Part shown: in pieces, positions 1-12,540 of the stretch
Numbering within the stretch: the first letter of the stretch is position 1
Layout: every line of letters starts with the position of its first letter
DNA from: Dickeya dadantii NCPPB 898
GTDB taxonomy: Bacteria > Pseudomonadota > Gammaproteobacteria > Enterobacterales > Enterobacteriaceae
DNA length: 32,000 bases
Assembly: GCF_000406145.1 (NCBI RefSeq)
Contig: NZ_CM001976.1
Span: 4,639,545 to 4,671,544, forward strand
Direction: 5' to 3'
The notes under the pieces: model-generated
What the model was told of the DNA's origin: nothing
What the model saw: the letters and a program-made list of their open reading frames with translations, nothing else
Databases searched by the model: none
Made by a program: the position numbers and the translations under genes

Positions 1-711
1 CCATGCATCCGGCTCGGCCGATTTAGCAGGCAAAAGGCAGTAGCTGAGCGCGACGGACGGCTCCCCCGCAATCCACGCTTCATCCAGCCGACAATCGCTA
101 ATCTGCCCGACATCCGTTACCCGAATAGCCCCCTGGCCGTCGGCCAGGCAGCTGAACGACGCCAGCGATTTGCGCAACCCTAACCCCAGCGCTTTGATGT
201 AGGCTTCTTTGCGGCTCCACAAACAGGTGAACGCCGGCAGGAATCGCACGTCATCAAACGCATCCAGCCAGCGGATTTCATCAGGATGAAAGAAACGTCT
301 GGCCACTGACCGCTTACGGTCCACATGACCCTGACAGCTTTCCACATCCACACCCACCGGACTGTGGCGCGCAAACGCAAAAGCAAAGGCGCTATGAGTG
401 TGGGATAGATTGAACTGAATTGTCGGATGCTGTGGCAAAAACGGTTTGCCATGCGGGTTACGCTCAAAGCGTAGTGCGGCGGCCTCTTGCTGACACAGCG
501 GCGCCAGCAGGATGCGCAGCATGCCTTCCGCCAACTGGCGGGAAGCCAACACCGCATCCGGCAGCACGCCGCAGGCCTGACGAGCCTGCGCGACGATTGT
601 CGGGCACGCCAGTTGCGCACGCGGTACTACAACACAGTGGGGATACGGCCATGCTCTCGCCGCCAGGTCATCCCAGCGGCAGGAAGATATTGACGACACA
701 GCCTTCTGCAT
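1..711 (-). CDS. vfmJ: Sfp/EntD-type 4'-phosphopantetheinyl transferase; the 3' end lies beyond the left window edge
   Basis: I translated the third minus frame myself. It reads ..RFERNPHGKPFLPQHPTIQFNLSHTHSAFAFAFARHSPVGVDVE..RRFFHPDEIRWL..FTCLWSRKEAYIKALGLG.. The GKP, FNLSH, GVDVE and WSRKEAYIKALG blocks are PPTase signatures. The first ATG after an in-frame stop (730-732) is at 711, which overlaps the kinase gene end by 44 nt. There is no stop before position 1. Track ORFs 180..620 and 464..652 are the two wrong frames. The symbol comes from remembered vfm operon order, not from a search. Confidence 0.8.
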   Translation of the reverse strand, partial: MQKAVSSISSCRWDDLAARAWPYPHCVVVPRAQLACPTIVAQARQACGVLPDAVLASRQLAEGMLRILLAPLCQQEAAALRFERNPHGKPFLPQHPTIQFNLSHTHSAFAFAFARHSPVGVDVESCQGHVDRKRSVARRFFHPDEIRWLDAFDDVRFLPAFTCLWSRKEAYIKALGLGLRKSLASFSCLADGQGAIRVTDVGQISDCRLDEAWIAGEPSVALSYCLLPAKSAEPDAW

Positions 712-1987
712 CCTTACGGTTCTCCAGCGTCAGGTGCCCGTCATGGCCTTCGACAATCTGCCGGCACAGAATCAGCCCAATGCCGCTGCCATGCGTCTTG
801 GTGGTATAAAACGGCACGAACAGGTTTTCGATATTCGCCACCCCTTTGCCCTGATCGATAATCTCGATATGCAATTGCCGGGCAATCACTTTCCAGCGCA
901 ACACGATTTCACCCTGCCCGGGTGCCATCGCTTCATCGGCGTTTTTCAGCAGGTTGATGAACATCTGCTGCATTTGATTGGCATCGACCATCGCCTGCTG
1001 CGGCGCGTCCCCGGAAAGCACCAGTTTACGCTGTGGGAACAGCATCGCCATTTGCGTCATCAGCCCGGCGATATCGCAGGGCTGTTTGTTGGCCGGCGGC
1101 AGGCGGTTCAACTGACGATAACTGCCGACAAAGGTGATCAGTTCGCGGGCGCGATTGTTGATGATCTCCATGCCGTTGACCAGATCCGGCGCCGCCTGAT
1201 GCTGACTATCCTTACGGAACACCTGCAACAGCGTCTGGCTGATGGAGGCAATCGGCGTCAATGAGTTGTTGATCTCATGGCTGATCACCCGCAGCAGGTT
1301 CTGCCAGGTTTTCTGCTCCTCGTTACGCAACAGTTTGCTCACATCGCTGATGAATAACAGGTGGTTTTGCCGACCGTCTTCGATAAAGGAATCGTGACGA
1401 ATCTGGAACATCCCCCGTGTGCCGGGGAAACGCCAGTCGACCGGCTCGGCATCTGACGGTTGCTGCAACAACCCTTCCAGCCCGAACTCCGCCGCCGGTT
1501 GTCCCACCAGCAGCGAGAGCGGTTTGTTGACCAGCACCGCCGCCGCGTCGTTACACCAGATGATGCGCCGCTCCGCGTCCAGCGCGAACACGCTGATATT
1601 GATATTGGAGATTACCTTGTGCAGCACATAGTAGGTTTCTTTTTGCTGCTGACGGCTACGGGCCATCGTGCCGGAAAGCTGGTTAATCTGGCGGATCAAG
1701 TTATCAAACGCGCCTTTATCCTTGGTAACGCCGCGCAGGCTGAAGTTTTCCTGCTCCAGCGCTTCCAGCAGGTTAGACACAACGTGAATCTTGCCGTTCA
1801 GTCGCTCGGAGAACGTAAAGCTGCTGTAGACCAGACACAGGAAGATGATGAATACCGTCAGTATCTTCAGGTACACCGACTGGTCGGGAAACAGCCATAG
1901 CAGGAAATACCCCAACAAGCCGGCAATCGCTGCGACATTGAATGACAACAGGTGAGGAGGCTCAAAGGAGGAGTCGAGTTTACTCAT
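668..1987 (-). CDS. vfmI: Sensor histidine kinase with two TM helices joined by a ~6-residue loop, a cytoplasmic PAS-like region, and HisKA and HATPase domains
   Basis: Track ORF of 439 aa. It has an H-box (ISHEINNSLTPI), an N-box (LLKNADEAM) and G-boxes (DQGKG, GSGIGL). The N-terminus has two hydrophobic helices (..AAIAGLLGYFLLWLF-PDQSVY-LKILTVFIIFLCLVY..). Its start overlaps the upstream regulator stop (ATGAGTAA). Confidence 0.9.
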   Translation of the reverse strand: MSKLDSSFEPPHLLSFNVAAIAGLLGYFLLWLFPDQSVYLKILTVFIIFLCLVYSSFTFSERLNGKIHVVSNLLEALEQENFSLRGVTKDKGAFDNLIRQINQLSGTMARSRQQQKETYYVLHKVISNINISVFALDAERRIIWCNDAAAVLVNKPLSLLVGQPAAEFGLEGLLQQPSDAEPVDWRFPGTRGMFQIRHDSFIEDGRQNHLLFISDVSKLLRNEEQKTWQNLLRVISHEINNSLTPIASISQTLLQVFRKDSQHQAAPDLVNGMEIINNRARELITFVGSYRQLNRLPPANKQPCDIAGLMTQMAMLFPQRKLVLSGDAPQQAMVDANQMQQMFINLLKNADEAMAPGQGEIVLRWKVIARQLHIEIIDQGKGVANIENLFVPFYTTKTHGSGIGLILCRQIVEGHDGHLTLENRKDAEGCVVNIFLPLG

Positions 1988-3380
1988 GGTTAATCTTGTA
2001 TTTTTCCAGTCGTCGGTAAAACGCGCTGCGACTCAGGCCCAGCGAATGGGCAGCCTTGACGGCGTTGCCCTCAAACTTCGCCATACGCTGGCACAGCAGG
2101 CGTTCTTCAATATCGGCCAGCGTCGCATCACAAGCCAGTTCCGGCTCGGCTTTCGCCACTTTTTGCGGCGCGGTAGGCAGCGACGGAAAAATATCGTCAC
2201 TGTTCAGCCGGGATGACCCGCACAGCAACACCGCCCGCTCCAGCAAATGACTCAGTTCGCGGATATTACCCGGCCAGTGGTAACCCGACAGCGCCGCCTG
2301 CCCGGACAGGCTGAGCCCCGGCGCCGGCTTGTTGTATTTTCTGGCGTAGCGGTCAATAAAGTTCAACGCCAGCGGCATGATGTCCTGCTGCCGTTCCACC
2401 AGTGACGGCACACGTAACTCAATAGTATTGAGGCGGTAATAGAGATCCTGACGAAACGTCCCTTCCGACACCCTGATGTCCAGTTCGGCGTTGGTGGCGG
2501 CAATAATACGGCAATTGGTTTTGAGCGTACGGGACGAGCCAACCCGCTCAAAGCAGCGTTCTTCCAGAATACGCAGCAGTTTGCTTTGCTGGGTCAGCGG
2601 CAGGTTGCCGATCTCATCCAGAAACAGCGTCCCTTTATCCGCCAGTTCGAAACGCCCGACGCGGCTTTCCCGGGCGTCGGTGAACGCGCCTTTTACATGG
2701 CCGAACATCTCGCTTTCAAACAGGTTTTCGTTGATGCAGCCCATGTTTACCGACACCATATTCTCGTCACGGCGCGGAGAAAGCTGATGGATGGCCCGGG
2801 CCAGCAGGCTTTTACCGGTGCCATTCTCACCCAGAATCAGGATGTTGGTTTCGGTTGCGGCCACCTGCTCCACTACCCGCATCAATTGTTTCATCGGCGC
2901 GGATTCCACCACCCACTCGCCATTGAAATTGTCTTCCAGTTCCAGCTTCAGCAGTTTGTTTTCTTCTTTCAACCGTTTGCCGGAGCGCTGGCTGAGGCTG
3001 AAGGAGATCTGCTGGCGAATCACATTCAGCAACCGCTCGTTGTCCCAGGGTTTCTGAATAAAATCCACCGCGCCCGCCTGCATGGCGCTCACCGCGATAT
3101 CGACGCTACCCCAGCCGGTCATCGCCACCACCGGCAGGTACTCGTCGTAACGCTTTATTTCTTCCAGCAACACCAGCCCTTCCTGTCCGGACGTGGTATC
3201 CCGTTGATAGTTCATATCCATCAGGATCAAATCGAAATCATGCTGGGACAACTGACCGGGCACCTGCTCAACGGCGGAAGCGAGCGTAACCTGATAGCCT
3301 TCCATGGACAGTAGCATCTGCAGGCTGGCCAGAATATGCGCGTCATCATCAACAATCAGGATATGTTGCTTATCCGCCAT
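1980..3380 (-). CDS. vfmH: Sigma54-dependent response regulator (REC + AAA+ enhancer-binding domain + Fis-type HTH)
   Basis: I trimmed the track ORF to M56 (MADKQHILIVDDD). AAGGA sits 5 nt upstream of the ATG at 3380, and the 55 upstream codons do not look protein-like. Motifs seen are Walker A (GENGTGKS), GAFTDA (a variant of the GAFTGA sigma54-contact loop), Walker B (LFLDEIG) and a C-terminal HTH (LGLSRSAFYRRLEKY). Confidence 0.9.
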   Translation of the reverse strand: MADKQHILIVDDDAHILASLQMLLSMEGYQVTLASAVEQVPGQLSQHDFDLILMDMNYQRDTTSGQEGLVLLEEIKRYDEYLPVVAMTGWGSVDIAVSAMQAGAVDFIQKPWDNERLLNVIRQQISFSLSQRSGKRLKEENKLLKLELEDNFNGEWVVESAPMKQLMRVVEQVAATETNILILGENGTGKSLLARAIHQLSPRRDENMVSVNMGCINENLFESEMFGHVKGAFTDARESRVGRFELADKGTLFLDEIGNLPLTQQSKLLRILEERCFERVGSSRTLKTNCRIIAATNAELDIRVSEGTFRQDLYYRLNTIELRVPSLVERQQDIMPLALNFIDRYARKYNKPAPGLSLSGQAALSGYHWPGNIRELSHLLERAVLLCGSSRLNSDDIFPSLPTAPQKVAKAEPELACDATLADIEERLLCQRMAKFEGNAVKAAHSLGLSRSAFYRRLEKYKINHE

Positions 3381-3560
3381 AGGGGTCCTTATCACGCGGG
3401 TTGATACTGAAATTTCACACTGACAGGCACCGCCGCAGGAGCGCTCCCGCTGCGATCGCCTCTTACAGCATAATCGATCCGTGGTAACTATTAACGGCTC
3501 TGTTGCGGGAAACTGGAGCGCCGGCACTGACGCCACTGGCGGCATACCGTCCGCTCCCGT

Positions 3561-12272: not shown

Positions 12273-12323
12273 ACGCTCATGACGCTCATGACGCTCATGA
12301 CGCTCATGACGCTCATGACGCTA
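12273..12323 (-). repeat. Tandem 9-bp repeat, 5 perfect copies plus a partial copy (plus strand ACGCTCATG; coding strand CATGAGCGT)
   Basis: Read directly. Units lie at 12273-81, 12282-90, 12291-99, 12300-08 and 12309-17, with a partial unit at 12318-23. Each unit carries an ATG in frame with the downstream KAS III-like gene (VMS repeats in the track ORF). Confidence 0.95.
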
Positions 12324-12463
12324 ATAGTGAAGCTATGTCGCAGCAACACCGTTCATGACCCATGATCGAACGCAGTCAATCTACAGACACTTTGCCAAAA
12401 AACGAGTTTTGTTTTTATCCGCAGTTGCCGCCGCCTTGTTTTCAGAACGCTTTTATCTCAAAA

Positions 12464-12532
12464 ATGGGATTAATGCGCTAAAACATGGGATTGTGTCGAC
12501 AAAACAGCAAAAAAATCGGTTTGATAATGGGA
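12464..12532 (-). promoter_or_regulatory. Three direct TCCCAT-core sites (minus-strand sense) upstream of the KAS III-like gene
   Basis: ATGGGA occurs on the plus strand at 12464-69, 12485-90 and 12527-32, with spacings of 21 and 42 bp. The segment 12481-12492 is the reverse complement of 7107-7118 (AATCCCATGTTT). The segment 12526-12535 equals 7138-7147 (AATGGGACGA). Confidence 0.4.
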
Positions 12533-12540
12533 CGACGCAG

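Follow-up and report, generated by a model that had tools for sequence, protein, structure and literature searches.

The first 12,540 nt (positions 1-12540) of a 32,000-nt window from Dickeya dadantii NCPPB 898 (NZ_CM001976.1, 4,639,545-4,671,544) almost certainly carry the right-hand half, vfmFGHIJ, vfmE and vfmAZBCD, of the Vfm quorum-sensing locus of D. dadantii, with group I alleles. Nothing in the analysis contradicts this identification; positions given below are those of the window, i.e. of the whole stretch that was analysed. The initial annotation of this DNA, made from the sequence without database searches, was correct in recognising the system, and what it recognised is a rediscovery: the system was already published, and the strain is all but identical to the model one. 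Beyond published work we add a sigma-54 promoter at vfmE, assignments for VfmA and VfmB, a wider distribution of the cluster and an adaptor gene missing from Dickeya, all of which we regard as modest but usable leads.

The Vfm (virulence factor modulating) system was reportedly described in 2013, by Nasser and co-workers, in D. dadantii 3937. It acts as the main virulence switch in the soft-rot pathogens of the genus Dickeya, and the chemistry of its signal has eluded identification ever since. In D. dadantii 3937 and D. oryzae EC1 the diffusible signal is made by the cluster and relayed by the VfmI/VfmH two-component system (PMC7912708, PMC10616651, PMC9306890). The cluster counts 26 genes, among which vfmK-vfmW and vfmAZBCD make the signal (PMC7912708, PMC10616651); the part that lies beyond vfmJ consists of vfmX, vfmW to vfmK and vfmY. 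VfmH binds and activates the promoters of vfmE and of vfmA, and VfmE activates all vfm operons as well as pectinase and cellulase genes, leading to a positive feedback (PMC7912708, PMC10616651). Conditioned medium induces vfmE and virulence genes in a strain-group-specific manner, via VfmH and VfmI (PMC9306890, PMC10616651). According to the initial annotation, the signal is not known to have been chemically defined. The papers say the same up to July 2026: the signal is called uncharacterised in 2022, 2023, 2024 and July 2026 (PMC13395407 for the last), and a literature search for a solved structure, with subscription-only papers outside its scope, found none reported.

All eleven genes previously predicted in 1-12540 were found at their positions with the domains ascribed to them, as judged from open reading frames (ORFs) and Pfam (Table 1). 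From left to right the order is vfmJ (partial)-I-H-G-F, vfmE, vfmD-C-B-Z-A, and these form three units transcribed as F-G-H-I-J, E alone and A-Z-B-C-D. In this region vfmE is the sole large ORF of the plus strand, the other large ORFs being all on the minus strand. Both the order and the operon names that had been given for it are those of the published Dickeya vfm locus (PMC7912708, PMC10616651). Pfam E-values across the domains range from 2e-18 to 1.8e-66, with weaker values for VfmZ and VfmA (2.5e-7 and 3.4e-9 respectively). The product lengths agree with those called independently on near-identical public contigs (310, 88, 203, 451, 362, 187, 235, 811, 466, 439 and 256 aa for A, Z, B, C, D, E, F, G, H, I and J respectively); VfmJ is 252-256 aa in the gene calls of sister contigs.

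The gene junctions had been described as tightly coupled. This is the case for the four overlaps quoted in support, which we recovered letter for letter: ATGAGTAA between vfmH and vfmI, ATGTCAGTTGA between vfmZ and vfmB, 14 nt between vfmC and vfmD, and 44 nt between vfmI and vfmJ. It is not the case for vfmG-vfmH, whose 180-nt gap is the largest among the non-overlapping junctions (22 nt for vfmB-vfmC, 13 nt for vfmA-vfmZ and 4 nt for vfmF-vfmG). The convergent vfmE and vfmD are separated by 62 nt, and the terminator scan found no strong terminator between them.

The proteins point to the same locus. VfmG is identical to the D. dadantii 3937 protein ADN00606.1 at 810 of 811 residues and VfmD to ADN00610.1/Q8RKD0 (UniProt name "VfmD protein") at 360 of 362, and relatives close to VfmB carry the NCBI name "VfmB protein". 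The exact VfmG, VfmA and VfmC of the window are annotated as D. dadantii. The exact VfmI is present on many contigs, including PHRA01000006.1 (D. dadantii BI3-1 according to Table S1 of PMC9306890), and also in a record with proteins that carry the NCBI label D. dadantii subsp. dieffenbachiae. The eleven proteins are syntenic and 83-99% identical in D. oryzae and D. undicola, with the exception of the VfmG of D. undicola (62%), a divergent group IV allele. Compared with the Vfm locus of D. dadantii 3937 (PMC9306890), gene content, order, orientation, the indC neighbour and the group I vfmG allele are the same. There is essentially no difference, the window carrying the same locus in another strain; the difference at strain level is a 9-nt repeat of 5.6 copies in the vfmA leader. 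Directly upstream of vfmA lies indC (12584-17050), followed by indB, indA, pecM and pecS; in strain 3937 an indC-vfmAZBCDFG transcription unit is described and read-through from indC co-transcribes vfmAZBCD (PMC9239193).

The initial annotation also held that the locus continues to the left of position 1, so that the window holds only part of the biosynthetic set. This is correct, because on four contigs with a 100% identical VfmI the left flank carries vfmX (DUF2807) and then a convergent operon running from vfmW to vfmO. That operon encodes KAS III-like enzymes, acyl-CoA dehydrogenases, a glyoxalase and two adenylating (AMP-binding) enzymes. This leftward part was read from the contigs sharing the kinase and lies outside the window itself. 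Among the observations that had been named as speaking against such a locus were a left flank devoid of biosynthetic genes and orthologues lying in a housekeeping context. What we found is the reverse on both counts: KAS III-like, dehydrogenase and adenylating genes occupy the left flank, and the relatives in other genera sit in the same specialised cluster.

Table 1. Features of the vfm region in the D. dadantii NCPPB 898 window (positions in the window)
Feature	Position	Strand	Description
vfmJ	1-711	-	Sfp-type 4'-phosphopantetheinyl transferase; C-terminal part past the left end of the window; Pfam ACPS 2e-18
vfmI	668-1987	-	Histidine kinase: two-helix membrane hairpin, PAS, HisKA and ATPase domain (Pfam and hydropathy)
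vfmH	1980-3380	-	NtrC-type sigma-54 enhancer-binding response regulator: REC, AAA+, Fis-type HTH; Sigma54_activat 1.8e-66
vfmG	3561-5996	-	Duplicated MacB/FtsX-type permease, 811 aa; Pfam MacB_PCD x2, FtsX x2
vfmF	6001-6708	-	ABC ATPase partner of VfmG; Pfam ABC_tran 4.2e-36
Conserved upstream boxes of vfmE	7108-7144	+	ATCCCATGTTT at 7108-7118, palindrome TCCCATTAATGGGA at 7131-7144; candidate activator sites
Sigma-54 type -24/-12 promoter	7197-7212	+	TGGCACACAATTTGCG; starts 134 nt upstream of the vfmE start codon
vfmE	7331-7894	+	AraC-family master activator; Pfam HTH_18 and HTH_AraC; role according to PMC7912708, PMC10616651
vfmD	7957-9045	-	Alpha/beta hydrolase; Pfam Abhydrolase_6 and Abhydrolase_1
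vfmC	9032-10387	-	MATE-family transporter; Pfam MatE
vfmB	10410-11021	-	203-aa "orphan", putatively acyl-CoA-dehydrogenase-like, half-size; Pfam Acyl-CoA_dh_1 sub-threshold
vfmZ	11011-11277	-	88-aa carrier protein; Pfam PP-binding 2.5e-7
vfmA	11291-12223	-	KAS III-like enzyme, 310 aa; Pfam ACP_syn_III_C 3.4e-9, C-terminal domain only
vfmA leader/promoter region	12224-12544	-	Two ATCCCAT boxes (12460-12491); 9-nt tandem repeat (12273-12322)
indC intrinsic terminator	12545-12568	-	Stem of 10 G-C pairs and T run; right border of the vfm region

Within D. dadantii only the specificity groups I and IV occur. VfmG of the window is 99.5-99.9% identical to that of NCPPB 2976 and 3937, both belonging to group I (Table S1 of PMC9306890), 61.5% identical to that of D. 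dadantii BI3-1 and 61.7% to that of the group IV strain D. undicola 2B12T. The group-defining genes vfmO and vfmP are outside the window, and the assignment to group I was made from the vfmG allele, which belongs to the group I/II/III clade, together with the species. Judged by its sequence, the vfmG allele of the window is that of group I. The recombination tract of vfmG spans 3501-5750, where nucleotide identity to D. dadantii BI3-1 is 50-76%, against 98-100% in the flanks; it is precisely delimitable for allele swaps. No other part shows such a drop between D. dadantii strains of groups I and IV. Most of this tract is covered by the bins 4001-6000, with a G+C of 0.446-0.448, the minimum of the window, while the other bins of 1-12540 range from 0.51 to 0.62. 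vfmG co-varies with the signal-synthesis alleles and vfmI does not (PMC9306890). In the Agr system of Staphylococcus, too, a species is divided into allelic specificity groups, in which the genes for signal synthesis go with a polymorphic receptor component. The two systems differ in that Agr uses a ribosomal peptide and Vfm a carrier-protein/adenylation chemistry, and in that the polymorphic partner in Vfm is an ABC permease, not the kinase.

Sensing of the signal probably involves VfmG and VfmI. Hydropathy places the VfmI hairpin at residues 12-61, with a 6-residue loop (PDQSVY) joining two membrane helices and no periplasmic sensor domain. The same topology is described in PMC9306890, which reports VfmI without sensor domain and proposes VfmG as a Bce-like co-sensor. 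VfmG spans the membrane with eight helices and has two periplasmic core domains, each of about 220 aa; it scores 606 bits against the ADOP model TIGR03434, whose cut-off is 622. The NCBIfam models closest to VfmF are DarD, LolD and MacB, all below their cut-offs. In the Bce-type modules of Firmicutes (BceAB-BceRS) an FtsX-family permease with a large extracytoplasmic domain likewise stands beside a two-helix-hairpin kinase, and the permease is the proposed sensor. VfmG and VfmI display these two traits, i.e. a permease with a large outer domain and a kinase without sensor domain. But VfmH is NtrC-type where the Bce regulator is OmpR-type, and therefore the locus would work like a Bce module without being a member of that group. 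The Vfm permease also differs by its duplicated MacB/ADOP type with two periplasmic domains, and the ligand, an external peptide antibiotic for Bce, is a self-made signal for Vfm. By analogy with Bce, VfmG may be coupled to VfmI.

VfmF and VfmG also share the MacB-type ATPase, the periplasmic core domain and the FtsX domains with MacAB-TolC. They differ from it in being separate chains, in the duplication of the permease and in the lack, in Dickeya, of a MacA-type adaptor. This last difference stands out when the locus is compared with its relatives outside Dickeya. In papers up to 2026 Vfm is described as specific to Dickeya (including PMC10616651 and PMC13395407), and one preprint extends it to Prodigiosinella. 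We searched for relatives by a peptide-pattern scan of species-representative genomes and by context look-ups of kinase homologues. Pseudomonas species and Rahnella have clusters colinear with vfmA-Z-B-C-D, E and F-G-H, with protein identities of 42-77%. In a P. syringae assembly the cluster goes on through I, J and X, then W, V, U, T, S and R homologues (32-48% identity), with a P450, a luciferase-like oxygenase and a hydrolase in addition. An assembly whose kinase is named Sodalis ligni by NCBI has the same layout, as read from gene calls and gene order only. The vfm-type cluster of Lonsdalea is rearranged, and Vibrio harveyi and Xenorhabdus vietnamensis share a third arrangement. VfmB homologues alone are present in other Vibrio species and in Aeromonas. 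Thalassotalea sp. M1531 (JABBXH010000001.1, 4074-11335) has a stand-alone module made of adaptor, ABC ATPase, duplicated MacB-type permease, sigma-54 regulator and hairpin kinase, without vfm biosynthesis genes; a sigma-54 promoter-like TGGCAC-N5-GTGC lies 72 nt upstream of its adaptor gene.

A MacA/HlyD-type adaptor gene (383-494 aa) is directly upstream of vfmF in all the Pseudomonas, Rahnella, Lonsdalea, Vibrio and Xenorhabdus relatives. In Dickeya loci this position is occupied by nothing but a spacer of about 600 nt (622 nt between vfmF and vfmE in the window). Searching the window by tblastn with the Pseudomonas and Vibrio adaptors gave nothing (best E-value 0.45), and no remnant of an adaptor gene was detected in the 622-nt spacer. 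Adaptor loss in Dickeya fits a shift from pump to dedicated co-sensor, and the whole suggests a preceding step, in which a carrier-protein biosynthetic cluster acquired a transporter-coupled two-component efflux module. A search for literature on vfm-like clusters outside Dickeya, Musicola and Prodigiosinella, with most subscription journals outside its scope, found none reported. The proposal that Vfm is not Dickeya-specific, and that clusters elsewhere have a MacA-type adaptor that Dickeya lost, has in our view an even chance of being both right and unreported. We go no higher because of the scope of that search and because NCBI already labels a Lonsdalea protein "VfmB".

Several further observations were made on these relatives. 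Marine metagenomes contain numerous homologues of the kinase at about 40% identity. In Pseudomonas and Rahnella the region upstream of vfmA was searched for Vfm biosynthesis genes and holds unrelated ones (toxin, permease, MarR, OLD/UvrD defence genes). In Rahnella sp. PCH160 the region upstream of the vfmA homologue (3329-8163) encodes an OLD-family ATPase/TOPRIM protein, a UvrD-type helicase and an HNH nuclease, which look like a Gabija-type phage-defence pair. In Xenorhabdus vietnamensis (MUBJ01000028.1, 75-2873) the Vibrio-type cluster adjoins Rep3 replication, resolvase and transposase genes, and annotation places a VfmB homologue of Vibrio lentus on a plasmid. The Vibrio/Xenorhabdus-type version of the cluster may be mobile.

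Could VfmFG be a signal exporter only, the kinase VfmI detecting the signal directly? This classical reading is that of the original annotation-based model (PMC7912708). VfmF and VfmG are of the MacB/LolD/DarD exporter type, and the MacA-type adaptor of the other genera would complete an efflux pump. But VfmI has no extracytoplasmic domain, it is vfmG and not vfmI that co-varies with the signal-synthesis alleles (PMC9306890), and the adaptor gene is absent from Dickeya. We consider a role restricted to export rather unlikely. As for the "two exporters" of the initial annotation, the MATE transporter VfmC and the ABC permease VfmG are both present, but their role as exporters was worded too firmly, since natural 1-kb deletions of vfmC leave signal output intact and VfmG is favoured as a co-sensor (PMC9306890). 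Sensing of a kind resembling the Bce type appears most likely, in which the polymorphic permease VfmG would bind the signal via its two periplasmic domains and pass the information to VfmI, a kinase without sensor domain.

A second possibility is that the cluster is mainly a secondary-metabolite cluster for a toxin or antibiotic, with a self-protection efflux pump and the two-component system that induces it, quorum sensing being a by-product of auto-induction. The five-gene module standing alone in Thalassotalea, with its sigma-54 promoter-like site before the pump genes, is what a detoxification module would look like, and the Vibrio/Xenorhabdus-type cluster adjoins plasmid replication and transposase genes. 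This is nevertheless improbable, as the group-specific activation of vfmE and virulence genes by conditioned medium passes via VfmH/VfmI (PMC9306890, PMC10616651) and the Vfm literature covered reports no toxic activity of the product.

The biosynthetic genes of the window were then compared with fatty-acid enzymes. A profile of nine VfmA relatives was aligned to the FabH structure 2ebd. Like FabH and the KAS III-like acyltransferases of secondary metabolism, VfmA has a C-terminal domain of the thiolase fold, and its nucleophile Cys (Cys117) is at the equivalent place. In contrast, the position of the FabH catalytic His is occupied by Cys, Gly or Tyr in the VfmA family, and that of the FabH Asn by an invariant His (His265), so that the Cys-His-Asn triad is not present. 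Without the FabH His and Asn, a standard decarboxylative Claisen condensation is doubtful. On this alignment VfmA is KAS III-like, with a catalytic set (Cys117, His265) that is non-canonical, and it may have an acyl-transfer role on VfmZ. NCBIfam gave no FabH-model match for VfmA and no model naming VfmA or VfmB, and sequence searches of both proteins against PDB chains returned no matches; the leads came only from the family profile for VfmA and from the predicted structure for VfmB. VfmZ has the attachment motif LDS (Ser37) and scores far below the NCBIfam cut-offs of housekeeping acyl carrier protein (ACP) models. In VfmD the nucleophile motif reads GHSSG, and about 110 aa extend the protein at its N-terminus.

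For VfmB we used an AlphaFold model (pLDDT 82.6). All of the top 50 PDB matches obtained with Foldseek are acyl-CoA dehydrogenases (E 3e-3 to 4e-2). By sequence only the C-terminal helical domain of these enzymes is recognisable, which the conserved C-terminal motifs of VfmB resemble. With 203 aa, VfmB does not have the architecture of acyl-CoA dehydrogenases, i.e. three domains over about 380 aa including an FAD-binding middle beta-domain. The predicted structure suggests that VfmB could be a half-size, acyl-CoA-dehydrogenase-like partner protein.

Housekeeping fatty-acid genes (KAS III-like enzyme, carrier protein and phosphopantetheinyl transferase) lying beside regulators by chance could account for the KAS III C-terminal domain in VfmA and the PP-binding domain in VfmZ, but there is hardly any chance that this is right, given the missing FabH His and Asn, the missing NCBIfam FabH match, the position of VfmZ far below the ACP cut-offs and the fact that, in every genome examined, genes of the vfmA, vfmZ and vfmJ types are confined to vfm-type clusters. 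This agrees with the earlier remark that none of these genes looks like a housekeeping fab gene.

VfmH has two features of a sigma-54 regulator: a Sigma54_activat domain (1.8e-66) and, at vfmE, a near-consensus -24/-12 element, TGGCACACAATTTGCG. This element is the only zero-mismatch TGGCAC-N5-TTGC in the 32-kb window. It is found at the same position in five Dickeya sequences, reads TGGCAT-N5-TTGC in Pseudomonas and Rahnella, and is kept in all eight clusters checked from these three genera. A Lonsdalea match, TGGCAAAGTGTTTGC, was considered as the homologous promoter and set aside: the site falls within an Orn/DAP-decarboxylase-like gene of the opposite strand, and we regard it as a probable chance match. 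The loop motif of VfmH is GAFTDA where the canonical one is GAFTGA. Since it is invariant in 12 of 12 family members, from Dickeya to Vibrio and Thalassotalea, this appears a trait of the family rather than a decay. Sigma-54 use by VfmH was left open in a 2023 paper because of this loop and because RpoN was absent from the VfmH pull-down; the conserved promoter at vfmE is relevant to the question of VfmH action through RpoN.

Upstream of the promoter, at about 55-90 nt from it, ATCCCATGTTT and TCCCATTAATGGGA are kept in four Dickeya sequences from three species. At one mismatch or less, the 11-mer ATCCCATGTTT has four sites in the window for 0.54 expected, three of them in the vfmE/vfmA upstream regions. 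These boxes could be sites for VfmH or VfmE. In the vfmF-vfmE spacer, two blocks (6700-6818 and 7090-7330) are almost invariant in three Dickeya species, the vfmF-proximal one spanning 118 nt, and the centre (about 6820-7085) varies by indels. For vfmA, we found upstream only a degenerate candidate, TGGCAAAGTGTCTGTAG, lacking the -12 GC and whose -12 part is not conserved between Dickeya species. The tandem repeat of the vfmA leader is perfect (unit ACGCTCATG on the plus strand, 5.6 copies) and stands between the upstream boxes and the start codon. It varies between strains, with about one copy in D. undicola and none in D. oryzae. Because each copy holds an in-frame ATG, VfmA is sometimes extended by gene callers (318-329 aa versions, in the same protein cluster).

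The activity of the locus may be pictured as follows. Phosphorylated VfmH would fire the conserved sigma-54 promoter upstream of vfmE. VfmJ would convert the carrier protein VfmZ to its holo form, and VfmA would load or transfer an acyl unit on it, rather than carry out a standard decarboxylative condensation. VfmB might serve as a partner or recognition subunit for carrier-bound intermediates; VfmD would release or trim the product and VfmC export it. These steps presumably work together with the adenylating enzymes, dehydrogenases and KAS III-like enzymes encoded left of the window.

Several points weigh against parts of this scheme. The biochemical roles given to VfmA, VfmZ, VfmB, VfmD and VfmJ are read from sequence, and the mechanistic details are weaker than the identification of the locus. 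The structural matches of VfmB are weak: besides the E-values of 3e-3 to 4e-2, the query-normalised TM-score is 0.39-0.52, and the matches cover about half of each target, with a target-normalised TM-score of 0.24-0.31. Export by VfmC has to be reconciled with the natural vfmC deletions, which do not abolish signal output (PMC9306890). For VfmH, RpoN was not recovered in the published pull-down and GAFTDA departs from the canonical loop; no convincing sigma-54 promoter was found upstream of vfmA, though VfmH is reported to bind there.

The window adds no new system, and the question of the signal chemistry is real but not newly testable from it. If they prove true relatives, the clusters of Pseudomonas, Rahnella, Vibrio and Xenorhabdus, with their extra tailoring genes, would be alternative producers for work on that chemistry.

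At the right border of the vfm region, the indC terminator is conserved in D. undicola and D. oryzae. With this exception, sigma-70 promoter and terminator scans of the window stayed at background level, and an Rfam search of the window found no RNA family. From 12584 to 22588 lie the indigoidine genes indC (1488 aa, with adenylation, carrier and thioesterase domains), indB and indA, next the regulator and transporter genes pecM and pecS, and argG, i.e. the classical pigment and virulence-regulation locus of D. dadantii. A NicO/RcnA-type nickel/cobalt transporter follows (22916-23827); its very His-rich loop derives from imperfect 15-nt and 39-nt tandem repeats (23348-23455). The remainder (24412-32000) carries a gene for a DJ-1/PfpI protein, then four xylose genes of the minus strand, xylR, xylH, xylG and xylF, and finally xylA, which is encoded on the plus strand and cut by the right end of the window. 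Opposite xylA and argG run two long ORFs, 30622-31995 (minus) and 21377-22597 (plus) respectively, which are antisense shadows and not genes.

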